Assembly (NCBI GenBank): GCA_963718585.1
Contig: OY970357.1
Location: 450,001 to 482,000, forward strand
Direction of reading: 5' to 3'
Length of the DNA: 32,000 nt
Source of the DNA: Candidatus Saccharimonadota bacterium
Lineage (GTDB): Bacteria > Patescibacteriota > Patescibacteriia > 2-12-FULL-60-25
The notes under the pieces are model-generated. The model was not told the DNA's origin, did no database searches, and was given only the letters and a program-made list of their open reading frames with translations. The position numbers were made by a program, and so were the translations under genes. Of this stretch, positions 24 through 32,000 are shown one piece after another (position 1 is the first letter of the stretch; each line of letters starts with the position of its first letter).

Positions 24-97
24 TCGGGGATCGTCTAATGGTAGGACAGCTGACTCTGAATCAGCCAATCTAGGTTCGAGCCCTAGTCCCCGAGCCA
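24..97 (+). tRNA. tRNA-Gln (anticodon CTG), CCA encoded
   Basis: Hand-folded cloverleaf: acceptor tcgggga 24-30 / tccccga 87-93; D arm 33-47; anticodon stem 49-53/61-65 with 7-nt loop ctCTGaa (anticodon 56-58). 4-nt variable loop; T arm ctagg-ttcgagc-cctag 70-86; discriminator g94; cca 95-97. Confidence 0.9.
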
Positions 98-100
98 AGG

Positions 101-133
101 AAAACACACCGTCGCAAAATGGTGTGTTTTTTT
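101..133 (+). terminator. Rho-independent terminator after tRNA-Gln
   Basis: 10-bp stem aaaacacacc (101-110) / ggtgtgtttt (121-130) followed by ttt. The A-run/T-run flanks make it potentially bidirectional. Confidence 0.6.
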
Positions 134-239
134 ACGGGACGGGGGCTCGAACAGGGAAAGGGTGAAAACGGAAGTGTTCACATGGTGAGGAGGGTCTGCG
201 GGAACCCGAAGGTTCCCGCAAACGCGAAGCGTGAGAGAT
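134..239. other. tRNA-linked conserved two-hairpin module, copy 1 (function and strand unknown)
   Basis: Aligns with 28893-29003. Shared blocks: gg[c/a]tcgaac, gggaa(a)gggtgaaa, ttcac, tgaggagggtct, cgggaacccgaaggttcccg. Hairpin H1 162-181 (gtgaaaac-ggaa-gtgttcac) and hairpin H2 198-219 (gcgggaacc-cgaa-ggttcccgc). No ORF is conserved between the copies. Confidence 0.6.
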
Positions 240-293
240 GCCCTAGTCCCCGAGCCAAGGAAAACACACCGTCGCAAAATGGTGTGTTTTTTA
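240..293 (+). repeat. Direct repeat of tRNA-Gln tail (T-loop end to CCA) plus its terminator; non-functional tRNA fragment
   Basis: 240-292 is identical by eye to 80-132 (53/53). It lacks the 5' two-thirds of the tRNA. Confidence 0.9.
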
Positions 294-3009: not shown

Positions 3010-5586
3010 CTAGAGGTCAAATCCCCCTGCTTCATCCCCGGCCTCGATCGCCGTGCGTTTTTCCGCAAGTTCTGCCTCGATCAATTGCCTCTTCCGACCG
3101 TATTTATAGCGTGAAAGTTCATGGATCATCTGAGCCAATTCCTTGTTTTCAGGTCTCTGAGGCATGATCGGTTTGAAATTGAACGGACGGGAGCCGGTAT
3201 TCTCTATGAGCAGTTTGATGTTCGCTGTATACGCCTCGACGTTCACCAGATCGTTGACATTGAAGACAGGGGCGAATTCTTTTTCAAGGAATTCCGCGTC
3301 TTCGACGCCTATCCGGAATGAGACCATGGTCCCGACATTACCGAAGATCGAATCCCGGATCTTCGTGTCCCCGCCCGGTCCGGTCAGCTGACCGATGAAC
3401 TGATGCGCGATGATCAAGTTCAATCCATATTTTCGCGCCTCAGAAAGGATCGCGTTGATCGAATCGGTCAAAAAGTTTTGGAACTCATCAACGTACAGGT
3501 AGAAGTCCTTTCGTTCTTCCGGTGGAAGCTCCGCGCGTCGCAATGCGCCATCCAGAAGCTTTCCGATGATGATCATGCCGAGAAGGTACGCATTCATGTC
3601 CCCGACCTTCCCCTTGGACAACTTCACCAAAACGATCTTTTGTTCGTTCATGGCCGTATACAGATCGAATGCGCTCTTTTGCTGACCGATGATCGGCCGC
3701 ATGTAGTCATTGTAGATGAATGATGCGAGCTTGGACGTGATATACGGCACCATGTTGGCCAACGACGACTCCCCTCCTGCCTTGAGCGCCTCCTTGGTCC
3801 AGAAGTCGCGGACTTCCTGTGACTTGCATTTGGACAGCTTATAGTTGCGGTAATCGTCATCGGCGAGCACGCGCGGGATGTCCATGAGCGTATTCCCGGA
3901 TTCCGTATCATCCATGTTCAACAAGATCGCATTCCGCATGTACGTCTCGAACATCGGACCGCCGGTGGATTTCAGGTCATACAATTTATCGAAGATCTTC
4001 AACATCTCATTGATGACGAAGGTGCGCGTTTGCGGACGCTCCTCATCGTATTCAAGCATGTTCAATCCAAGGGGACGTTCCGTGTCCGCCGGATCGAAAT
4101 AGATCACATCATCCGCTCGTTCCTTCGGTACATATTCCAGGCATTCGTCCACAAGATCTCCGTGCGGATCGATCACGCACACCCCGCGCCCGGCTTCGAT
4201 GTCCTGTTTGATCATGGACGCTTGAAAGACGGATTTTCCAGAACCGGACTTTCCGATCACGTACATGTGCCTTCGGCGATCCTGCGCTTTGATACGGACC
4301 TCGTATTTGTGACCTCGGTATTCGGAAAGTCCCAGAAGCAACCCCTCTGTCGGCAGATTGGAAGGAGGAAGTGCCTTGCGTGAAAGAAGCCAGTTGATCT
4401 TCGGCGTCTCGGTCGTGGGCAGTGGAAAATGATACAACGACGCAAGCTCTTCACTGTTCAATGTCAGTTTTTCCCGTTCATCAAAGTGGCGGTAAATAAA
4501 ATGCCGGATCATCTGCGTCTGGAACGACGGCGTATGCTTGATGAACGAGTTCCCGTATTCGTAGATATTGTATTGGCCGTATGCGCTCAAAATATCGTTC
4601 AGATATCGTTTAGCTTTTTCCGGATTGTTCGATGACGCGATGATGCGGATGTTCACATCTAACCCTGCTTTAGACGCCTTCTCTTCCAGTCCTTTGATCA
4701 TCTCCTCTTCAAGTGGCGATAGGCGATAGGCTTCACTCTCTTTCTTTGTCCCCGGTTTTGCTGCCGATGCCATGCTCGAAAGTTCTTTTCCAACAGATTT
4801 CAGAAGCTTTCCCCCACCCTGCACCTGTGAAAGTTTCTTTCCCTGCTGCATTTCCCGTGCGATCCGCGTGCCTTCGCTTCGCCAGCCTGAACGGGCGCTC
4901 CGTACGACGTATTGCACTGCGACTCCATCCAGATCATCGACTTTTGAAAGGGCATTCGTGATCGAATTCAACGGATCTGATTCCAATTTCTCGTATGTCT
5001 TGATCGGGAAGGCACTTGAACGACGCAGTTTGAGATAACTGCCCATGACCACGCCGGTCGCGGCGAACATGTTGTAATCCGCGATCTCCTCAACATCCGC
5101 ATGAGGGAATTGTGCATGGATCTGCTCTTCTACGAATTGCCGGTATCGATCCGGAATGACGACATAGAAAGATATCTTCGCGTGATGTGAAACGATCTCG
5201 AATGAGAAGTTGTCTTCGCGGCCTTTCAGCCACGTCATAAAGCCTTTTTGTGCCTTCAATGATCCAAGCGTCGAGAAGATCGTTTCCATCACGGAAATGA
5301 GTTCCTGTATCTGTTGTGTGGATTTTGAGCCTTCGGAATCTTCTTTTCGGACCTCTTTCGGCACGCGAACGGACAAAACCTTCATGCCAAAGGCGAGCGA
5401 GGCGCGTCCCCGTCTGATGTACAATCCTCGGATCAGATACAGGATCACGGTCACGCCGATCCCGATCCCGATAAGTGTCAAAACGAGCAGGACGATGGGG
5501 TCGGAAATGAACGCACCGAAATCAAAGATCTGTCCCGCGGAGCCACCGGAGGTCAGATCGAGTTGAAAGACGAAAAACGGCATCAT
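3010..5586 (-). CDS. Membrane-anchored VirD4/TraD/TraG-like (type IV coupling protein-like) P-loop ATPase
   Basis: N-terminal TM helix (PIVLLVLTLIGIGIGVTVILYLI). Walker A GKSGSGKS, Walker B LYVDEFQNF, downstream IIAHQFIGQL. Overall architecture typical of TraD/TrwB-type coupling ATPases. ATGA overlap with the upstream gene. Confidence 0.75.
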   Translation of the reverse strand: MMPFFVFQLDLTSGGSAGQIFDFGAFISDPIVLLVLTLIGIGIGVTVILYLIRGLYIRRGRASLAFGMKVLSVRVPKEVRKEDSEGSKSTQQIQELISVMETIFSTLGSLKAQKGFMTWLKGREDNFSFEIVSHHAKISFYVVIPDRYRQFVEEQIHAQFPHADVEEIADYNMFAATGVVMGSYLKLRRSSAFPIKTYEKLESDPLNSITNALSKVDDLDGVAVQYVVRSARSGWRSEGTRIAREMQQGKKLSQVQGGGKLLKSVGKELSSMASAAKPGTKKESEAYRLSPLEEEMIKGLEEKASKAGLDVNIRIIASSNNPEKAKRYLNDILSAYGQYNIYEYGNSFIKHTPSFQTQMIRHFIYRHFDEREKLTLNSEELASLYHFPLPTTETPKINWLLSRKALPPSNLPTEGLLLGLSEYRGHKYEVRIKAQDRRRHMYVIGKSGSGKSVFQASMIKQDIEAGRGVCVIDPHGDLVDECLEYVPKERADDVIYFDPADTERPLGLNMLEYDEERPQTRTFVINEMLKIFDKLYDLKSTGGPMFETYMRNAILLNMDDTESGNTLMDIPRVLADDDYRNYKLSKCKSQEVRDFWTKEALKAGGESSLANMVPYITSKLASFIYNDYMRPIIGQQKSAFDLYTAMNEQKIVLVKLSKGKVGDMNAYLLGMIIIGKLLDGALRRAELPPEERKDFYLYVDEFQNFLTDSINAILSEARKYGLNLIIAHQFIGQLTGPGGDTKIRDSIFGNVGTMVSFRIGVEDAEFLEKEFAPVFNVNDLVNVEAYTANIKLLIENTGSRPFNFKPIMPQRPENKELAQMIHELSRYKYGRKRQLIEAELAEKRTAIEAGDEAGGFDL

Positions 5587-7561: not shown

Positions 7562-7587
7562 AAAACCCCGCCACTCGGCGGGGTTTT
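7562..7587. terminator. Bidirectional-type hairpin terminator after the tail-fibre-like gene
   Basis: aaaaccccgcc (7562-7572) - actc - ggcggggtttt (7577-7587): 11-bp stem with A-run/T-run arms, 3 nt from the stop at 7591. Confidence 0.7.
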
Positions 7588-7590
7588 GGA

Positions 7591-9687
7591 TCATTTGACC
7601 TTCGCTTCCAACGCACTCACTCTGGCGTTTAGATCATCAAGCTGTGACTTCAGTGAATCGTTCTGTGCTTTGAGTTCTTTGATCGAATTCAACATGGTCC
7701 AGATGATCGGATCATTGTTCACTGATAGATACCCATTGCTTTCCATGGTCACGGCTTCCGGGATCGCCTGCTGAACGTTTTGGGCAATGACCCCGACATG
7801 ATTTTCTGTCGAGAATCCGATCGGGTTGTCCTTTTTATAACTGAAATTGACCGTATTGATTTTCATCAAGTCCGATAATCCGCGGTCGAACGTACCGTGG
7901 ATATCCTTCAAACGCGCATCGGAATACACGCCCCAAGACCCTCCACTCGGTTTATATGCGTTCCCACCAACGAGGTTGAGGTCACCCGTCGATCCTTTTA
8001 TCCAGATCCGATTACCTGATCCGCTCGGCGGGAAGATCTCCATGTCGCCGCTATTATTCGTGTCTAGTTGGAAATTGTATGCGCCATTTGGAGACACGAG
8101 TTTCGTGTAATTCGGGATCAGTACTCCACCGCCATAATTCACCGTCAAAGCAGGGTTTTTCCCTGGATTTCCGACGTTCAGGTCCCCCGTCGATCCATTC
8201 GTCCAGATGTACGCTTTTGTGGCCCCATCCTGACGAAAATGGATCGCTGGGTTTCCGCTTCCGGTGTGATTCAGGATCATCACTGGATCAGTGCTAGCCT
8301 CCAAATACGTCTGACCGCTTCCGTAGACTCCGTACCCGCTATATCCAAGGTATCCGTACGAGCCGGTATTGACGTTATAGCCATAAACTCCGGCGGTCAG
8401 CCCTGACCCATAAATTCCCATTGAATTCCCGTTTCCTACAACGCCATATGTATAACCGGTAAACGAACCCCCAAACGGTCCTCCGTTTCCTTGGACGCCG
8501 TAATAACCCGACGCAACCACTCCAGCATCGCCTGGGTTCGCGCCACCATAAAGTTCGGCGCCATTATATTTTCCTTGGCTCCGAATTCCGTTCCAATTCG
8601 TTGAGCTAAAGAATCCACCATAGCCATTTGTCGATTGACCGTTGATCGCATACGTTCCGCTTCCGATGATCGCGCTGGTTCCTGAGGTATGATAGACCTT
8701 GATCCCAGTACTTTCGCCATATGATCCATTTGCAGTGAGATCAAGGGCGTAACAATTGCCGCCTGCGTTAAGAGAATCACACTCGCCCATGGCACCCGAG
8801 CCGCGTTGGTTCGTTGTGCCTGGCGTGTTTTGGGCAAACCCGATGACCGTCTCCGAGTTGTTCAATCCTGTATTCGGATTGATGACCAGGGATCTATCCA
8901 CGTTTCCATTGTACTGGGAGTCGACATAGATCGCATTTGCCTGCGGGTTCACCGTATTGTTCATCCTGATCTGCAGTGCATTGGTTCCAACGTTCCCGCT
9001 GACGGCCGCTGTCAGGAGCTTGATGTTCCTGCCATTAGTCTGATCTTTCGTCTCAAGGAACGAGTTATTCAACGGAGACATGAACGCACCTGATTGAAAG
9101 ACAGAACCTGCTTGGCTATATCTGAAGTTGGTTGAGACATCCACCCCTTTTTGCGCGATCAACTGACCGGTCATCGTGTCACCTGCCTTGAGGACGTAGG
9201 TTCCCGCACCACCCCCACCCGCCTGCGTCCAGTCTGTGATGCAATCGTTGCTGATCCCGTTCACTGCAGGATCAAAACAGAACTTATACGCTTGCACGCG
9301 GCCATCTTCACCGAGGATAGCGTTCGGAGATGCGATTTGTGTCGTTTTAACGCCACCGGTCACGGCGAACGTTAACGGTTTCGCCGTGCCCCCATACCAG
9401 TTACCCATGTTTAGAGAAGCGGAGCCACTATAATCAACCCTAATAGCTTTACCGTTCGTTAAGCCTATGTCACTCAAATAATTAGGGCCACCTGAATAAG
9501 GAATTCCGAAATTGATTTTTGCATCCACTTGTTGAGCCGAAGTGCCTTTTACGTTCCATATTACTCCTGGAACATTCCCACTAGGCGGTTGATTCGTTGG
9601 ACCAGCGAATTGCGCATATGCGAGCGCTGGGATGGCAAGTACTCCAATTACTCCAAATACTGCTGTTCGAAGATGAACGCGTTTCAT
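7591..9687 (-). CDS. Secreted phage-tail-fibre-like protein with C-terminal Peptidase_S74 / intramolecular chaperone domain
   Basis: C-terminus YSDARLKDI...HVGVIAQNVQQAIPEAV...SVNNDPIIWTMLNSIKELKAQN plus a coiled coil matches the endosialidase/tail-fibre chaperone domain. Tail-fibre motif GDTMTGQL and long G/Y/N-rich repeats. Start chosen at ATG 9687 (MKRVHLRTAVFGVIGVLAIPALAYA, a Sec-type signal peptide) rather than the 801-aa ORF start. Confidence 0.75.
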   Translation of the reverse strand: MKRVHLRTAVFGVIGVLAIPALAYAQFAGPTNQPPSGNVPGVIWNVKGTSAQQVDAKINFGIPYSGGPNYLSDIGLTNGKAIRVDYSGSASLNMGNWYGGTAKPLTFAVTGGVKTTQIASPNAILGEDGRVQAYKFCFDPAVNGISNDCITDWTQAGGGGAGTYVLKAGDTMTGQLIAQKGVDVSTNFRYSQAGSVFQSGAFMSPLNNSFLETKDQTNGRNIKLLTAAVSGNVGTNALQIRMNNTVNPQANAIYVDSQYNGNVDRSLVINPNTGLNNSETVIGFAQNTPGTTNQRGSGAMGECDSLNAGGNCYALDLTANGSYGESTGIKVYHTSGTSAIIGSGTYAINGQSTNGYGGFFSSTNWNGIRSQGKYNGAELYGGANPGDAGVVASGYYGVQGNGGPFGGSFTGYTYGVVGNGNSMGIYGSGLTAGVYGYNVNTGSYGYLGYSGYGVYGSGQTYLEASTDPVMILNHTGSGNPAIHFRQDGATKAYIWTNGSTGDLNVGNPGKNPALTVNYGGGVLIPNYTKLVSPNGAYNFQLDTNNSGDMEIFPPSGSGNRIWIKGSTGDLNLVGGNAYKPSGGSWGVYSDARLKDIHGTFDRGLSDLMKINTVNFSYKKDNPIGFSTENHVGVIAQNVQQAIPEAVTMESNGYLSVNNDPIIWTMLNSIKELKAQNDSLKSQLDDLNARVSALEAKVK

Positions 9688-9695
9688 ACTTATAA

Positions 9696-9704
9696 AGTAT
9701 ACCA
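9696..9704 (-). promoter_or_regulatory. Extended -10 element TGGTATACT
   Basis: Minus strand tggtatact lies 8 nt upstream of ATG 9687 with no SD, consistent with a leaderless transcript. Confidence 0.45.
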
Positions 9705-9710
9705 TAGTGT

Positions 9711-9759
9711 TAAAAGAAAAAGCCCCACACCTCTTCGCTTGCGCGTAAGATGTGGGGCT
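9711..9759 (-). terminator. Rho-independent terminator after the frameshifted lipoprotein gene
   Basis: 9-bp stem agccccaca 9721-9729 / tgtggggct 9751-9759, followed on the minus strand by ttttctttta. Confidence 0.6.
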
Positions 9760-9775
9760 AGGAGACGCAATTGCG

Positions 9776-11645
9776 TCAGTTGCAGTTCGCTGTATAGAAG
9801 CCTGCCAATGGCGGGGCGATATGAACGAAGTGAACGGTCTGACCATCCGGCTCCGTCCAAAACTGCACCGCACTATAGGCCTTTGAATCGACCTGTGCAG
9901 TGACTGTCTGATTGACCTGATCCATGGTCGTGAGGCGCAGGATCCCGGGAGCACCATTGTTCCCTTCGTTCCCCGCGGCCAACGCCACGCCGGCACGCGG
10001 CGACCAAACGGGGTAGTACCCCCCGATCTGAGTGGCCGCGAACTCTGTCCACGTCGCCATGTTATTGGTTACGTGGTAGATGACACCTGCTCCGTCGTTC
10101 CGGCTTCCCGTCACGAACAGATCGTTGATCGACGTCCCAGAGATCGACTGGAATGACACCGCATCAGCAGGGGCATTCGCAGCTAGACCAGCTCGAACCA
10201 TTCCAGATCCGCAGAAGCGCCTTGTTGGGGTCCGACCTCGATCCCGCATCCGTAGTGACGAGAATGTCCTCCTCACCTGTCACGAAGACATGTGAGGCAT
10301 CCAAGCCCCAAACGTGGAAGTAGTGTCCGTACCCTGTCGAATAACCCTGGTAAGCCGGTGTTCGACCAGCTAGATCCTGATTTCCTCCAAAGGTAGTTGA
10401 CGGAGCTCTTATCGCCAAGGAGGTAGACGTTCCCGTTCACTCCCCAGACGTCGTGTACTCCCAGGCGTATGGCCTTGGTGAGTCCGCGACCCAAGACCCA
10501 CCGGTGTTGTGGAACACCTGCGCACCGATGTAACCGAGGTTACCGTCGCCCGTGGCGGCTACCCAGATGTCATTGGGGCCGGAGCCCCAGATGCCCGCTA
10601 CCTTGGCGGCGCCGGGAAGGTCTTCCTGGCTCCAGGACGATCCGTTCCAGTGCGCGATCTGACCGAAGTCGTACGTCGCCGTCGTCACGTAGATGTTCGA
10701 GGAACTCGTTCCCCAGACACCACCGACGAGCGAAACGTCGTAACTTCCTTGCGCCAGGTCGGTCTTCCACGAAGGCGTGGACAGCTTGAGCGCGTCGAAC
10801 GATGCTCGATCGGGTCCAGGTTCCGCAGGAGAATGGCTGAGGGGTCGAACCCCCCGAACCACCTGCGCCGGCGCTTCCGCCCGTTCCAGCCGTACCACCG
10901 GTACCAGCACCACCATCGGACCCGGCGCTTCCGCCAGTCCCTCCGGTGCTACCCGCACCAGCCATACCGCCCGTACCGGACGTTCCAGCTGTACCGGCTG
11001 AACCAGCACCGCCGTCGGTTCCTGCGGTTCCTCCGGTCCCGGAGGTTCCTGCAGTGCCCGATGCACCCGCTGTTCCGCGAGCGTGAGCCACCAGTCGGAG
11101 TGCCCCAGACCGGACACGCCGCCCGAACCAGACGTTCCTCCGGTCCCGGAGTTGCCTCCGGTGCCAGACGTTCCCGCTGTTCCACCGACACCAGATGTGC
11201 CGCCTGAACCGGAGACGCCGCTTGATCCGCCCTGACCCGAGCTTCCGCTCGCGCCTGATGAACCTGCGAAGCCGCCCTGTCCGGCCGTGCCTGCACCACC
11301 ATCGGCGCCAGCTTGGCCTGCAGCACCTGAGGTGCCGCCGGTCCCAGCGTCGGTTCCAGCTGTTCCGCTCGTGCCGCCCGTTCCCGAGCCGCTTGCGAAA
11401 CCGCCTGTTCCTGAAACGCCGCCGGTACCACTGGTACCTGCCGCGCCCGATGTGCCGCCCACGCCGCCTCCATCAGGAAGCTGACAGCTGGGATCTGACT
11501 GACACGTCGCACTGCCGTAACCACCGGATCCCGACACTCCATTCGGAGCCGGATCGTTACCACCGCAAGCGATGGCAAAGAGAGCCGACAGCAAGGTCAC
11601 CACGACCCGGCTGTCGAGCCAGTGGGTGTTCTTCCTGCTGTTCAT
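9776..11645 (-). pseudogene. Frameshifted Gly-rich lipoprotein with repeated beta-propeller-like blades
   Basis: N-terminus MNSRKNTHWLDSRVVVTLLSALFAIAC (signal plus lipobox-like). The repeated blade pattern (h-WG-x5-hyV-G ... WNGSSWS) continues across four ORFs in three frames: 10437..11645, 10273..10494, 10164..10418, 9776..10276. Frame changes near 10485, 10348 and 10183. Confidence 0.65.
10842..11468 (-). repeat. Low-complexity GC-rich coding repeat (GTSGTGG-type Gly/Ser/Thr/Ala linker)
   Basis: Translation is runs of G-[TSA]-[SAG]-G-[TSA]-G-G. It is open in nearly all six frames. The same peptide pattern continues in a second frame between about 11095 and 10850. Confidence 0.6.
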
Positions 11646-26949: not shown

Positions 26950-27519
26950 TTACGACCGTCTTGAGAGTTCATATCGAATGTCTTCGATCTTCCGAAGATG
27001 CTGGCGCGCCTGATCGCCCTTCGCCCGTAGCGGACCCGTCAGATCAAGCGAGGTGAGGAACGAGACGATCTCATCTGCTTTTTTCACGATCCCATTCACC
27101 GCATCGACCCGACCATCCGTCGCCTCCCGGACCGATCGACGGACCAGTTCTCCGACAAAATCAGATAATGCGCCGATCGCCGTGTCCGGCGCCATCTTCA
27201 TCACGCGTCGGAATGCCTTTTGGTCCTTCGTGACGAACGCATGGACCAAAAGAGCTTCTGCAAACTCCTCGCATCCCGCGTGCCACGCGCCGACTTCCTG
27301 AAGATCCGCGTTGCGTTCGATCAGTCTCCATCCCTTGGCATAGATCGTTTCCGCGCTCCGGAGCTCTGTGACGGCAGAAGCACCCCGCTGCATGGCGAAG
27401 ATCGATATCTTCGAAAGTCGTGTCAGTTCACCACCCAACGCCTGCAGTTCCCTCCGCGCGCCTTTCATCGTGTTGTATCTGCGTGATAGTGCCGTGAAGA
27501 TCGGTGATGATCGTTTCAT
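26950..27519 (-). CDS. Translin-family-like protein
   Basis: 189 aa, all-helical. The C-terminal part SDFVGELVRRSV...LDLTGPLRAKGDQARQHLRKIEDIRYEL parallels the translin blocks DYLxGxxxLxxELxR ... LNLKNDxLRKRYDxLKYDxKKxEEVVYDL. ATGA overlap with the upstream GT gene. Confidence 0.5.
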   Translation of the reverse strand: MKRSSPIFTALSRRYNTMKGARRELQALGGELTRLSKISIFAMQRGASAVTELRSAETIYAKGWRLIERNADLQEVGAWHAGCEEFAEALLVHAFVTKDQKAFRRVMKMAPDTAIGALSDFVGELVRRSVREATDGRVDAVNGIVKKADEIVSFLTSLDLTGPLRAKGDQARQHLRKIEDIRYELSRRS

Positions 27520-28781: not shown

Positions 28782-28857
28782 CGCGCCTGTAGCTCAGTGG
28801 TAGAGCAGTGGCCTTTTAAGCCAATGGTCGTGGGTTCGATCCCCACCGGGCGCACCA
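28782..28857 (+). tRNA. tRNA-Lys (anticodon TTT), CCA encoded
   Basis: Acceptor gcgcctg 28782-88 / cgggcgc 28847-53; D arm gctc-agtggtta-gagc; anticodon loop ctTTTaa (anticodon 28815-17). Variable loop tggtc; T arm gtggg-ttcgatc-cccac 28830-46; a28854; cca 28855-57. Confidence 0.9.
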
Positions 28858-28860
28858 AAT

Positions 28861-28890
28861 AAAGATCCCTGCCAAAATGCAGGGATCTTT
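28861..28890. terminator. Hairpin terminator after tRNA-Lys
   Basis: aaagatccctg - ccaaaatg - cagggatcttt: 11-bp stem with A/T arms. Confidence 0.55.
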
Positions 28891-28892
28891 AT

Positions 28893-29003
28893 GTAGAGGC
28901 TATGGGATCGAACCAAGGGAAGGGTGAAACCGTCAGGTTTCACTGTTTGAGGAGGGTCTACGGGAACCCGAAGGTTCCCGTAAGAGGCCGAAGGTCGAGC
29001 GAA
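28893..29003. other. tRNA-linked conserved two-hairpin module, copy 2 (function and strand unknown)
   Basis: Aligns with 134-239. H1 28924-28943 (gtgaaacc-gtca-ggtttcac); H2 28960-28981 (acgggaacc-cgaa-ggttcccgt). The 36-nt block tgaggagggtct-N-cgggaacccgaaggttcccg-N-aa differs from copy 1 only at the two N positions, which pair with each other. Confidence 0.6.
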
Positions 29004-29094
29004 ATCCCCACCGGGCGCACCAAATAAAGTCCCTGCCAAAATGCAGGGATCTTTATGTAGAGGCTATGGGATCGAACCAAGGGAAGGGTGAAAC
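29004..29094 (+). repeat. Direct repeat of tRNA-Lys tail (T-loop to CCA), terminator and first ~38 nt of the module
   Basis: 29004-29094 equals 28839-28930 except for loss of one a (28865). Weaker similarity to module hairpin H1 continues to about 29103, into the murG stop codon. Confidence 0.9.
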
Positions 29095-29103
29095 GGTAGG
29101 ACT

Positions 29104-30165
29104 TCATTCGATGATACCCATCCATCGTTCTGCGAGCGCTGAGCCGTTGTCCGTTGGAAAAAGATCGTGCAGGCTCTGGCCAAGTTTCTCCTGTCGCTCA
29201 CGATCATCCAAAAGTCCAATGACCTGATCGCGAAGGTTCGCTTCAAACGACGAAGACGTTTGATCCAACATCACGACCCCCTCTTTCACGCGTTCCGCAT
29301 TCGCTTCCTGATGTGATCCCGGGATCGGAATGACGACAGCCGCCTTTGAGAGGGCTGCGAGTTCTGACACCGTGCCGATCCCCGCACGGGAGATGACGAC
29401 CTCGGCCACCGCATAGGCATCACGCATCTGCCGTTCATCAAAGTCCTCATGCGTCATATATCCTGATGCCGGCTCATTCACGGCCTTTCCTTTTCCGGTC
29501 AGATGGATGATCTGAGCATACTGCAAGAGATCCCCCTTGATCCGCTCCAATGCGTGGTTCAACGCGAGGGCACCGGTCCCGCCACCGAACACAAAGACCG
29601 TTTTCCGCTCCGGATCTAGATCCAACCGTTTTGCCGCATCGCGTCGATCCGTCACGTGATCATCATTGAAACGGCACGGTGTCGCGATCCGCGACGCGGA
29701 AACGCCTTCAAACGGGGAACGATCGTACGCGAATGAGGACGTGACACACGCGCAGCCTCGGGCGACGCGACGGTTGGAAAGACCCGGTTCCGCATCTAAC
29801 TGATGGATCGCGGTCTTGATCCCGTGGCGCTGAGCCTCTTTCATGACCGGAACCTCGGTGAATCCGCCGGCTCCCACGACCAGATCAGGTCGTTCGTGCG
29901 AAAGGATCTCTCCTGCCATGCGACGCGCATGCTTGTAATCACGCAGGAGTGTCAACCATTTCAACGTCGGATATCTCGGAAATTTCACGACCGGGATCGA
30001 GTGATACGGAATATGTTCTGACTCGATCACCGGGGCCTCGGGGCCGGAGGGCGTCCCGACCCAAGAGATGGCGACATCCGATCTTTGTCCGCGCATCCGG
30101 CGTACGACCGCCAACAACGGTGTCACCGGTCCGAGCGTTCCTCCTCCGCAAAACAAGATCCGCAT
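29104..30165 (-). CDS. murG: Undecaprenyldiphospho-muramoylpentapeptide beta-N-acetylglucosaminyltransferase
   Basis: MRILFCGGGTLGPVTPLLAV N-terminal G-loop; C-terminal VISRAGIGTVSELAALSKAAVVIP. Position after ftsW. Start at ATG 30165. Confidence 0.88.
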   Translation of the reverse strand: MRILFCGGGTLGPVTPLLAVVRRMRGQRSDVAISWVGTPSGPEAPVIESEHIPYHSIPVVKFPRYPTLKWLTLLRDYKHARRMAGEILSHERPDLVVGAGGFTEVPVMKEAQRHGIKTAIHQLDAEPGLSNRRVARGCACVTSSFAYDRSPFEGVSASRIATPCRFNDDHVTDRRDAAKRLDLDPERKTVFVFGGGTGALALNHALERIKGDLLQYAQIIHLTGKGKAVNEPASGYMTHEDFDERQMRDAYAVAEVVISRAGIGTVSELAALSKAAVVIPIPGSHQEANAERVKEGVVMLDQTSSSFEANLRDQVIGLLDDRERQEKLGQSLHDLFPTDNGSALAERWMGIIE

Positions 30166-30166
30166 A

Positions 30167-31267
30167 TCAGCGAGATTGTCGTGAGATCGATGCAACGATC
30201 CCCATACCGATCGCCAAGGCGATCAATGCCGAGCTCCCATAGCTGACGAATGGCAAGGTCACTCCCGTGATCGGGAGCAGGCCGATCATGGATCCAACAT
30301 TGAACACCGTCTGAATGGCGACCCACGCCCCGATCCCGACGCCGAGGAAGCGCCCGAACGGATCCGGCGCCTCTCGCGCGATCCGAAGGATCCGAAGGGT
30401 GAGATATGCCATGGCCACAAGGAACACGACCGTGATGAAGAACCCCATCTCTTCTGCGATCACCGCAAAGATCGAGTCACCGGCCACTTCAGGCAAATAC
30501 AGATACTTTTGTCGGGATTGTCCGTATCCGACACCGAAAAGACCACCGGATCCCACGGCAAGGAATGCCTGATTGATATGGTAGCCCACGCCCTGCGGGT
30601 CCAATTCCGGATGGAGAAAGGTCATGAAACGCTGAGCGCGGTAGGGCGTGATCTTGACGAGCAGCGCGAGCATGGCGACGCCGGCCGCGGCGAGTCCACC
30701 GAACCAGATCAGCGGTGCGCCGGCGATGAAGTAGGCCAAGAGGGCGGATCCGGCGATGACGGACATGGAACCCGTGTTCGGCTGCATGATGAGGAGGACC
30801 ATGACGATCCCAAGCGCTCCCAGGAATGGGATCAACCCCTCTTCAAGGGTGTGCGCATTCTTCCCATGCCGATTCGCCAACCATGCCGAGGCGTAGACGA
30901 GAAACGTGATCTTCACGAACTCGGATGGTTGAAATGCGATCGGACCAAAATGCACCCAACGTCCCGCGCCACCGAAGTGAAGACCGATCCCCGGGATATA
31001 CACCAGGATCAAAAGAACGATGCTCGCGATGAGCGCGGCGAATGCGAACGGCCGAAGGATCTTGTAATCGATGTATGAAAATGCGAAGAACAACGCGACG
31101 CCGGGAATGATCCCGTACAGCATCTGATGTCGGAAGAAGTACCAACTGTCACCGAATTGCTGAAGGCCGAGCGGACCACTCGCGGACAACAGCATGATCA
31201 GCCCGAAGACCGTGATCCCGGTCAGGGTCCACAGAAATGCACGATCGATAGGCTTGCGATGTCGCAT
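30167..31267 (-). CDS. ftsW: SEDS-family peptidoglycan polymerase FtsW/RodA
   Basis: About 10 TM helices; QPSEFVKI; GVGYGQSRQKYLYLPEVAGDSIFAVIAEEMG. Start at ATG 31267 (MRHRKPIDRAF), 2 nt after the mraY stop. The 488-aa ORF start lies inside mraY. Confidence 0.85.
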   Translation of the reverse strand: MRHRKPIDRAFLWTLTGITVFGLIMLLSASGPLGLQQFGDSWYFFRHQMLYGIIPGVALFFAFSYIDYKILRPFAFAALIASIVLLILVYIPGIGLHFGGAGRWVHFGPIAFQPSEFVKITFLVYASAWLANRHGKNAHTLEEGLIPFLGALGIVMVLLIMQPNTGSMSVIAGSALLAYFIAGAPLIWFGGLAAAGVAMLALLVKITPYRAQRFMTFLHPELDPQGVGYHINQAFLAVGSGGLFGVGYGQSRQKYLYLPEVAGDSIFAVIAEEMGFFITVVFLVAMAYLTLRILRIAREAPDPFGRFLGVGIGAWVAIQTVFNVGSMIGLLPITGVTLPFVSYGSSALIALAIGMGIVASISRQSR

Positions 31268-31269
31268 GG

Positions 31270-32000
31270 TCAAAAACGATCTTTCAGGGCAAGGACGACG
31301 CCAACGCCGGCGGACAGAAGAGAGATCAACCAAACACGGAACACGATCTGCGACTCGGTCCACCCGCTGGCTTCCAAATGATGATGGATCGGTGCGCTCT
31401 TGAACACCTTCCGTTTGAAGAGTTTTTTCGACGTGATCTGGATGAGGACCGACACGGATTCGATCACGAACGGCAAACCGATGATAGGTAGCAATAAGGG
31501 CTGGTTCGTGACCATGGCAACGACCCCAAGCGCCGTTCCGAGCGACATCGCTCCCGTATCTCCCATGAAAAAGCTCGCAGGTGTCACGTTGTACCACAAG
31601 AAGCCGAACAAGGCTCCGACGATCGCCGCACAAAAGACCGCGAGATCCGCCTTCCCCTGGGTAAATGCGATGACAGCGTATGCGGCGAATGATGCGACGA
31701 GTGGACCGCCGGCAAGACCATCAAGTCCATCCGTCTCGTTCACGGAAAACGATGTCGCAATGATGACAAAGACGAAAAAGAGGACGTACCACCCGTTGAT
31801 ATCAAAATTCCCGACAAAAGGGACGTGCAGGACATCCCATTGCAATTTCGAATAGAACCACCACGCACCACCGACGGCGATCAAGCAATAACCGATCAAC
31901 CGATGGCGCATCCGCAATCCGCCTCCAGCCGGACCGATCTTGCGCATGTTGAGATAGTCATCGACCAAACCGACCAATGCCGCCGCAACGAGTGCGCCAA
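31270..32000 (-). CDS. mraY: Phospho-N-acetylmuramoyl-pentapeptide-transferase (5' end outside window)
   Basis: GLVDDYLNMRK, DGLDGLAGG, FMGDTGAMSLG and PIHHHLE motifs. The reading frame stays open to the window edge. Confidence 0.88.
   Translation of the reverse strand, partial: GALVAAALVGLVDDYLNMRKIGPAGGGLRMRHRLIGYCLIAVGGAWWFYSKLQWDVLHVPFVGNFDINGWYVLFFVFVIIATSFSVNETDGLDGLAGGPLVASFAAYAVIAFTQGKADLAVFCAAIVGALFGFLWYNVTPASFFMGDTGAMSLGTALGVVAMVTNQPLLLPIIGLPFVIESVSVLIQITSKKLFKRKVFKSAPIHHHLEASGWTESQIVFRVWLISLLSAGVGVVLALKDRF

Follow-up and report, generated by a model that had tools for sequence, protein, structure and literature searches.

Integrase-mediated insertion at tRNA genes is classically recognized by a direct repeat of the tRNA 3' part that begins in the T-loop, one of the sublocation classes of tRNA integration sites. 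Other precedents for sequences tied to tRNA 3' ends are 3'ETS-leuZ, a small RNA (sRNA) from the 3' external transcribed spacer of a pre-tRNA, and the products of retroviral reverse transcriptases, which copy the 3'-terminal 18 nucleotides (nt) of a tRNA and then stop at the methylated adenosine m1A58. To our knowledge, constant coupling to a copy of the last 18 to 19 bases of a tRNA occurs in no described class of sRNA, repeat, or mobile element. Here we describe such a coupling in a 32,000-nt stretch of DNA from a Candidatus Saccharimonadota bacterium (contig OY970357.1, positions 450,001 to 482,000), referred to below as the window. Behind both tRNA-Gln and tRNA-Lys lies a module of ~110 nt whose family, judging by its sequence, is best filed as structured, noncoding, previously undescribed, and from Patescibacteria; none of the families tested explains it.

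From sequence comparison, the unit of this family is ~160 to 165 nt long and is built from four parts: a tRNA 3' tail reaching from T-loop position 58/59 as far as the discriminator base or the CCA, a short trailer, a hairpin flanked by A/T runs, and the module. Because the unit is present ~1.3 to 1.6 times, the module is bracketed by two copies of tail plus hairpin. In the window genome, an actual tRNA gene provides the first tail as its own 3' end; the repeat always begins at T-loop position 58/59. The features of the two loci are as follows.

24..97, + strand: tRNA-Gln (CTG) with encoded CCA (ARAGORN; Rfam tRNA model, 61.4 bits)
80..132, + strand: Gln left repeat, made up of the 18-nt 3' end of tRNA-Gln (T-loop position 59 through CCA), its trailer, and an A/T-flanked hairpin at 101-130
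133..239, strand undecided: Gln copy of the module (covariance model, 104 bits; helices; inverted tRNA match)
240..292, + strand: Gln right repeat, comprising tRNA tail, trailer, and hairpin; its start, GCCCT, pairs with 142-146 as the closing helix
28783..28857, + strand: tRNA-Lys (TTT) with encoded CCA (ARAGORN; Rfam tRNA model, 73.5 bits; 100% identical to tRNA-Lys of relative L018)
28839..28930, + strand: Lys left repeat, comprising the last 19 nt of tRNA-Lys, the trailer, the hairpin at 28861-28890, and the first 38 nt of the module
28893..29003, strand undecided: Lys copy of the module (covariance model, 100.8 bits; helices; T-loop match)
28904-28908 with 29004-29008: closing pairing at Lys, GGGAT with ATCCC
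29004..29094, + strand: Lys right repeat, comprising tRNA tail, trailer, hairpin at 29029-29050, and left part of the module
29057..29106, strand undecided: partial second module, comprising the left end and a degenerate first helix, H1 (covariance model, 22.8 bits, E value of 1.8e-4)
29104..30195, - strand: murG, convergent with tRNA-Lys (homologs with Pfam PF03033/PF04101)

At the Gln locus, positions 80-132 and 240-292 are identical at 53 of 53 positions, with a period of 160 nt. At the Lys locus, 28839-28864 recurs exactly at 29004-29029 and 28866-28930 at 29030-29094; the second copy lacks a single base, A28865, so that the period is 165 and then 164 nt. An earlier note, made by a model from the letters alone, had described the Lys repeat with its 1-nt deletion, its run from the T-loop through CCA and terminator into ~38 nt of the module, and periods of 165 nt at Lys against 160 nt at Gln, and each of these points was borne out. 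The repeats begin within the T-loop, 19 nt (Lys) and 18 nt (Gln) upstream of the tRNA 3' end. The spacing between the direct repeats is 107 nt at Gln and 74 nt at Lys, the modules are 107 nt (Gln) and 111 nt (Lys) long, and the two modules share 81% identity across 105 positions aligned without gaps. The exactness of the repeats, which are 53 and 91 nt long, together with a shuffle test of covariation (below), excludes chance as the origin of the arrangement.

The order 3' of tRNA-Lys is trailer, A/T-flanked hairpin, module, second copy of 28839-28930, partial module, and murG stop codon. Beyond the Lys right repeat there are ~12 weakly similar bases up to that stop codon (29104-29106), which sits in the 3' arm of the degenerate H1 of the partial module; past 29106 the bases encode the conserved MurG C terminus. 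Thus, the decaying second module that the earlier note saw running into the murG stop is present. In a Logan assembly (independent, but possibly of the same sample), the murG contig, L007, ends 39 nt beyond the murG stop, in the right repeat (~29065), as would be expected where a k=31 graph enters a true repeat. Such tail repeats break up short-read assemblies at tRNA loci and can be mistaken for attachment (att) sites of genomic islands. At the other locus, a second strong terminator on the minus strand (302-323, GACCGCGG...CCGCGGTC plus T7), which ends a 124-amino-acid (aa) open reading frame (ORF) at 322-696, abuts the Gln right repeat; therefore, the Gln module sits behind two terminators on the minus strand.

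Further members were found by translating the module in the tRNA-sense frame and searching 1.84 billion protein representatives with HMMER for spurious ORFs. There were two matches, P0241 (E value of 3.9e-11) and P0242 (E value of 1.7e-4); the same search in the murG-sense frame gave no candidate. P0241 is a spurious ORF on a contig that agrees in length (1,084,458 nt) and sources with the one that carries the window's MurG. It is not encoded in the window and therefore marks a third locus of the window genome. This copy is known from the peptide and its back-translation, so that the DNA copies compared below are three (Gln, Lys, and L022). The back-translation of P0241 gives a module, then ...TCGGAACA, then a stretch read as tRNA positions 58 to 76 and ending in GCCA, followed downstream by a hairpin and the start of another module. 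We infer that it parses as module, tRNA tail, hairpin, and next module.

P0242 lies on the AT-rich metagenome contig L022, which is 1,050 nt long and has no tRNA gene. A covariance model built from the three DNA copies gives the L022 module 97.1 bits. It is flanked by two different A/T-flanked hairpins, each with CTCGGAACAAA ahead of it, and the start-to-start distance is 164 nt, compared with periods of 160 and 164/165 nt in the window. The L022 tail aligns position by position with the window tRNA tails (T-stem 3' strand, acceptor 3' strand, and discriminator) and has no CCA; the downstream tail and hairpin resemble those at Gln. Modules of the window and of L022 are 77 to 78% identical, against 81% within the window genome; the GC contents of the two genomes are 54% and 40%. 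Comparison of these copies indicates that the ~164-nt period of tail, hairpin, and module is a property of the family and not an accident of the two window loci, and that the family occurs also away from any tRNA gene.

Other searches were negative. Pattern scans of DNA in viral contigs, metagenome contigs, and GTDB representatives gave only chance matches in coding regions, but the first patterns required the exact linker GAGGAGGGTCT, which varies in L022, and so these negatives cover near-identical copies only. BLAST of the module against phage and plasmid collections returned nothing meaningful. Rfam 15, searched on both strands of the three loci, reached the gathering score for no family except the two tRNAs, and we found no description of such an element in the literature; thus, the earlier note's failure to assign the module to a described class still holds. 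Several candidate identities were rejected. A tRNA-like gene was dismissed because neither ARAGORN nor the Rfam tRNA model recognizes a tRNA beyond the two real ones, and because no T-stem accompanies the T-loop-like motif. A small protein was dismissed because the compensatory sites give nonconservative amino acid changes in both open frames. A group II intron, a riboswitch, and a CRISPR/tracr-type RNA have neither an Rfam signal nor associated genes.

Read on the tRNA strand, the module has the following parts.

135-152 (Gln): left end
153-161 (Gln): purine-rich stretch
162-181 (Gln) and 28924-28943 (Lys): helix H1
182-196 (Gln) and 28944-28958 (Lys): linker, containing GGAGG
197-220 (Gln) and 28959-28982 (Lys): helix H2
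222-232 (Gln) and 28986-28996 (Lys): helix H3
233-239 (Gln) and 28997-29003 (Lys): right end
28904-28914 (Lys): inverted T-loop, GGGATCGAACC

The left end is the reverse complement of a tRNA T-arm. Gln 135-152 is an inverted match to the T-loop, T-stem 3' strand, and acceptor start of its own tRNA (15 of 17 positions, P = 0.0005), and the Lys left end matches the reverse complement of the tRNA-Lys T-loop at 11 of 11 positions, with a stem part nearer to the Gln T-arm. The purine-rich stretch, GGGAAAGGG, comes next. H1 has 8 bp and a loop of GGAA (Gln) or GTCA (Lys); between the two copies one A-T pair becomes C-G, and an A.G mismatch in Gln is an A-T pair in Lys. The linker between H1 and H2 carries GGAGG, and the linker sequence TGAGGAGGGTCT, which the earlier note called invariant, is indeed identical in both window copies, but only GGAGG is kept in L022. 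H2 has 10 bp, an invariant CGAA loop, a basal pair that is G-C in Gln and A-T in Lys, and one more outer T-A pair in both. These pair changes in H1 and H2 are the ones that had been read from the two modules at the outset. H3, which was absent from that first description, has 4 bp and a GAA loop.

The right end, GAG(A/C)GA(T/A), abuts the tRNA tail at T-loop position 58/59. Here the junctions are GAGAGAT ahead of GCCC and GAGCGAA ahead of ATCCCC, where the tRNAs themselves have CTAGGTTCGA and GTGGGTTCG. From here the tRNA-derived part of the right repeat runs from position 58/59 to the CCA, a length of 18 nt at Gln and 19 nt at Lys. The start of the second tail is able to base-pair with the bases immediately 5' of UCGAAC, and this closing helix is possible in each copy (GGGGC/GCCCT, GGGAT/ATCCC, and GGTTTGG/CCAGACC). 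The flanking hairpins (101-130 and 28861-28890, and 274-311 and 439-470 in L022) have common loop and arm motifs, GTCGCAAAAT, GCCAAAATGC, and CCGTCAAAATTGAC; the second L022 hairpin is like that of Gln and the first is like that of Lys. By their sequences, these hairpins may be parts of the family unit and not just local terminators of the ordinary kind.

Over the three DNA copies, H1 and H2 comprise 18 stem pairs, and 98% of the cells are paired. Five of the 18 pairs carry changes in both partners, and no pair has changed in a single partner; 1 of 500 shuffled controls attains the observed covariation, and sliding the partners leaves 20 to 48% paired. In H3, three of the four pairs are doubly changed between Gln and Lys, and the loop is conserved. 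L022 adds compensatory pairs in H2, so that 4 of its 10 pairs have a compensatory change, and mends the H1 mismatch. Two G-C pairs of H2 are A-T in this AT-rich host. Between the genomes of 54% and 40% GC, GGGAAAGGGTGAAAACGGAAGT.TTCACATG is nearly invariant, and the H2 stem covaries. The closing helix covaries as well among the three copies, but in a shifting register that rules out scoring on one alignment. As the earlier note had proposed, and with covariation now extended by L022, this pattern indicates a folded functional molecule or an array of hairpins recognized by a protein; it does not look like neutral repeat decay or coding sequence. The further homologs that the note had called for thus exist in L022 and P0241, and the former covaries.

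These results bear on the simplest alternative, that the duplications are functionless by-products of slippage at hairpins. Direct repeats no more than 107 nt apart plus a partial third copy are what slippage produces, and we found no expression signals. However, a neutral duplication does not account for 77 to 78% conservation between genomes of such different GC content, for stem changes that are compensatory only, or for the same period at an unrelated locus (L022). We consider this explanation very improbable.

A protein encoded on a 1,084,458-nt contig is identical to the window MurG; the relatives next in line share only 55% identity, and those that are named are annotated as Patescibacteria. 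Two distant relatives, L018 and L019, keep murG, a terminator, and tRNA-Lys at the same place, and in L019 the arrangement is murG stop, one bidirectional terminator, and convergent tRNA-Lys. Neither syntenic locus has the module or the tail duplication. Since the module is absent from the syntenic loci of relatives, module and duplication were added in the lineage of the window. Comparison with sibling genomes, which the earlier note had recommended, therefore shows an insertion, as far as sequence can tell, and not conserved tRNA-flanking sequence. A third, AT-rich relative has no tRNA-Lys at the murG site, and 11 kb of a Logan contig that extends the genome contain no tRNA. In L018, which is the nearest relative for this locus, a Peptidase_C25 gene and a 490-nt noncoding gap lie between murG and tRNA-Lys (7580-8071); the gap is unlike the module.

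An insertion behind tRNA genes could mean that the loci are scars of larger integrative elements (prophages or islands) that entered at T-loop att sites and were later almost wholly deleted. This explanation predicts the observed duplication of the tRNA 3' part from the T-loop onward. Against it, what lies between the repeats shows collinear homology over its whole length at two loci and in another genome, and therefore independent deletions cannot be its source. In addition, the repeats continue through the locus-specific trailer and terminator, the window contains no remnant of an integrase, and the covariation shows selection on the module. Of the explanations discussed here, we find this one the hardest to credit.

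Alternatively, the module may act as DNA, i.e., as a nonautonomous mobile or recombination module whose hairpins, in single- or double-stranded DNA, are recognized by a recombinase encoded elsewhere. Such an element would enter at T-loop position 58/59, and the repeat of tail plus hairpin would be a long target duplication or a recombination product. It would fit the occurrence of the module behind three different tRNAs in one 1.08-Mb genome and its absence from the syntenic site of relatives, the same T-loop junction position each time, and the left end as an inverted T-arm copy, which gives the Gln copy imperfect inverted termini. Moreover, the compensatory changes are all from Watson-Crick to Watson-Crick pairs, as expected of DNA hairpins too; divergence within the genome (81% identity) is on a par with that between genomes (77 to 78%); and no promoter was found. 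Other observations do not fit. A domain search of the 30 ORFs in the 32 kb, whose gene content is that of ordinary housekeeping genes, found no integrase, transposase, or reverse transcriptase. The repeats of 53, 91, and 14 nt are not a fixed target duplication, the Lys copy lacks proper terminal inverted repeats, and there is nothing similar in phage, plasmid, or viral collections. Finally, an invariant H1 region beside a covarying H2 suits a folded functional molecule better than a decaying transposon. We regard a DNA-level element as unlikely, though still plausible.

Our preferred reading, held tentatively and with somewhat less than even confidence, is that the family is a new structured RNA unit on the tRNA strand, composed of module, tRNA-like tail, and terminator, and maintained by recombination with the adjacent tRNA 3' end. 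The RNA would arise by read-through out of the tRNA gene and be ended by the second hairpin. It would fold into the closing helix and three hairpins, exposing two purine-rich stretches, GGGAAAGGG and GGAGG, that resemble Shine-Dalgarno (SD) sequences. The family would carry its own tRNA-like 3' tail, as in L022 and in the first tail of P0241. Beside a real tRNA gene, this tail and its hairpin would be homogenized with the 3' end of the gene by gene conversion, slippage, or unequal recombination, and the left limit of homogenization would be the start of homology, in the T-loop. Because the repeat runs through the locus-specific trailer and hairpin, it was copied from the local gene or primary transcript and was not borne by the element. 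The repeat extends into the module at the Lys locus and, probably, at the P0241 locus. Slippage between two repeats could then have produced the partial extra module at murG. The tail may be retained because its first bases supply the 3' strand of the closing helix and its hairpin serves as the terminator. We infer these last steps, homogenization, slippage, and retention of the tail, from the arrangement of the copies.

Several clues favor the tRNA strand. On this strand alone, G.U pairs form in H3 of Lys, in both the Gln and the L022 closing helix, and at the position just outside H2 of L022. The minimum free energy is lower on this strand for all three copies (-51.3/-49.8/-43.9 versus -47.3/-45.0/-35.8 kcal/mol). 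The H1 loop is of the GNRA type, C(GGAA)G, in Gln and L022, and the back-translated P0241 is compatible with it. The order module, tail, and hairpin is found in every copy.

Other points weigh against an RNA from the tRNA strand. A stable hairpin stands between tRNA and module, and read-through is an assumption. The register of the closing helix shifts between copies, and at Lys it has 5 bp only. Gene conversion is argued from sequence identity only, the comparison rests on three DNA copies, and transcription is presumed. The invariant H2 loop forms the extra-stable C(UUCG)G on the opposite strand only, where H2 of Gln and Lys also gains a U.G pair. That strand likewise carries the T-loop consensus GGUUCGAnYCC and C-rich stretches resembling an anti-SD sequence. 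Promoter scans found no sigma-70-like promoter on either strand at any copy. With clues in conflict, the functional strand of the module is still undecided, just as the earlier note had concluded.

The opposite, murG-sense strand could itself be the functional RNA, a small regulatory RNA with C-rich, anti-SD-like stretches. It would expose CCCUCCUCA and CACCCUUUCCC, the second of which resembles the 3' tail of 16S rRNA, together with an H2 capped by C(UUCG)G, and would end at the bidirectional terminator common with the convergent tRNA; the partial copy would be part of the murG 3' untranslated region (UTR). By analogy with RsaE/RoxS, such an sRNA would repress translation by pairing with ribosome-binding sites. 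RsaE alignments over the full length of the model are found, although below threshold, at 28859-28943 (28.3 bits) and at 278-355 in L022 (21.8 bits). All DNA copies keep the UUCG loop unchanged over a stem that covaries and that, in Gln and Lys, is lengthened by the extra U.G pair. The C-rich stretches lie in unpaired linkers on either side of H1, and the partial copy retains exactly H1, the C-rich stretch, and the terminator right after the murG stop. Set against these points, the RsaE scores are far under the gathering score of 79, and the Gln copy has no match. No promoter was detected, and the full module is preceded by one terminator hairpin at Lys and by two at Gln. Four G.U pairs turn into C.A mismatches on this strand, which folds more weakly than the tRNA strand, and the duplicated tRNA tail is left without a reason. 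An sRNA from the murG-sense strand is thus a rather doubtful explanation, but one that has to be kept in view.

Patescibacteria have minimal genomes with little noncoding DNA. A conserved 110-nt fold that occurs several times per megabase in a minimal genome is therefore likely to be functional. If the module is an RNA, it would be among the few lineage-specific structured RNAs known in Patescibacteria, and its exposed SD-like or anti-SD-like stretches would point to the ribosome or to translation initiation. The coupling to the tail provides a handle with which to find members and to test how tRNA 3' ends become duplicated without an integrase.

Several other genes in the window deserve mention. 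A 402-aa ORF (10437-11645, - strand) without a Pfam match is rich in Gly, Ala, Ser, and Thr and has degenerate periodic repeats of 9/18 nt (10858-11465). It adjoins an 801-aa protein (7591-9996) with a C-terminal Peptidase_S74 domain, an intramolecular chaperone of the phage tail-fiber type. A 189-aa protein (26950-27519, - strand) matches the Translin family (E value of 1.3e-9), which is known mainly from eukaryotes and archaea. The FtsW ORF (30167-31633, - strand) has 488 aa from its first start, but the Pfam domain begins at residue 134 and relatives have 366 to 368 aa; from this comparison the true start is probably internal. An 858-aa coupling ATPase of the VirD4/TraG type (TrwB_AAD_bind and T4SS-DNA_transf domains; 3010-5586, - strand) lies amid the housekeeping genes.

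How do the loci compare with known systems? The attL and attR sites of tRNA-integrating elements (tyrosine integrases) have the same direct tRNA 3' repeat from the T-loop, with the tRNA intact and a displaced 3' fragment downstream. Here, in contrast, 107 to 111 nt lie between the repeats, with no integrase or kilobase-scale cargo; the cargo is homologous (77 to 81% identical) at tRNAs of different identity; the repeat goes on through the locus-specific trailer and terminator; and one member has no tRNA gene. Moreover, the right junctions are unlike the T-stem 5' strand that a half-site of a tyrosine integrase would call for.

Short, noncoding, multicopy sequences with stable hairpins and no enzyme within them, such as REP/BIME, BOX, ERIC, and the PATEs (from IS200/IS605), are similar in these respects and also in their placement between convergent genes near terminators. 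They differ in that the module has few known copies, which are 77 to 81% identical and so far from uniform, and long, variable direct repeats; in that it is tied specifically to tRNA 3' ends; and in that no RAYT or TnpA gene was seen. Compared with miniature inverted-repeat transposable elements (MITEs), the left end of the Gln module can pair with the beginning of the right repeat over a stretch of ~13 nt that includes 2 mismatches, and the Lys ends over 5 bp; the direct repeats (53, 91, and 14 nt) do not have the fixed length of a target-site duplication.

Among RNAs, 3'ETS-leuZ is likewise a noncoding sequence directly 3' of a tRNA gene and could be released from a precursor or read-through transcript. 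Here, however, a hairpin with a T-run precedes the module, a fold of several hairpins stands behind unrelated tRNAs, and there is a second tRNA tail. On the murG-sense strand, the likeness to RsaE/RoxS (RF01820) lies in a 5' hairpin GUGAA...UUCAC, unpaired C-rich stretches, and an intrinsic terminator. The C-rich motif is present on the minus strand as CACCCUU(U)CCC after H1 and CCCUCCUCA before it, unpaired in the predicted folds. The differences are the low scores (28 and 22 bits, where the gathering score is 79) and the missing match at Gln, a host from another phylum, the extra H2 and H3, the flanking tRNA tails, and a strand that is unproven.

A more distant comparison is with retroelements, both those with a long terminal repeat (LTR), primer-binding site (PBS), and polypurine tract (PPT) and the Neurospora retroplasmids with their hybrid tRNA-plasmid cDNAs. 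The likeness lies in the formal order of repeat, tRNA-complementary segment, core, purine-rich end, and repeat; in addition, the tRNA part of the repeat here is the 3'-terminal 18 to 19 nt, whose boundary at 58/59 coincides with the stop of reverse transcriptases on m1A58. Because the module shows a constant 58/59 junction, a tRNA-complementary segment after the left repeat, and the same order of repeat, complement, core, purine-rich end, and repeat, one could imagine an element, carried by RNA, that picks up the 3' end of any tRNA next to it and spreads by tRNA-primed or template-switching reverse transcription and homologous recombination. Yet no reverse transcriptase is known here, the repeat is the tRNA sense strand plus genomic trailer, and the complementary segment stops short of the CCA end in Gln and Lys; we know of no retroelement of this kind in bacteria. 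We consider this origin quite unlikely. If it were true, the module would be a miniature retroelement-like or tmRNA-like entity in a bacterium of the Candidate Phyla Radiation (CPR).

The comparison with transfer-messenger RNA (tmRNA), including the permuted two-piece forms (RF00023 and RF04321), is similarly mixed. The Lys acceptor 5' strand lacks a pairing partner, a tag reading frame is missing, ARAGORN reports no tmRNA, and the upstream T-arm belongs to an ordinary complete tRNA. The Rfam tmRNA_permuted model aligns T-arm, ACCA, spacer, and motif with 15 bits against a gathering score of 47, and the acceptor pairs are nonstandard. The order of parts is nevertheless shared: a T-arm, the acceptor 3' strand, CCA, a spacer, and a motif like the tmRNA 5' element. 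That element, GGAUUCGAC (GGAUUCGACGGGA), is resembled by UAUGGGAUCGA (28902-28914) and by UGGAUUCGAACGGGA (317-331 in L022), and in the Gln copy the bases ahead of the 5'-element-like motif can pair with the acceptor 3' strand.

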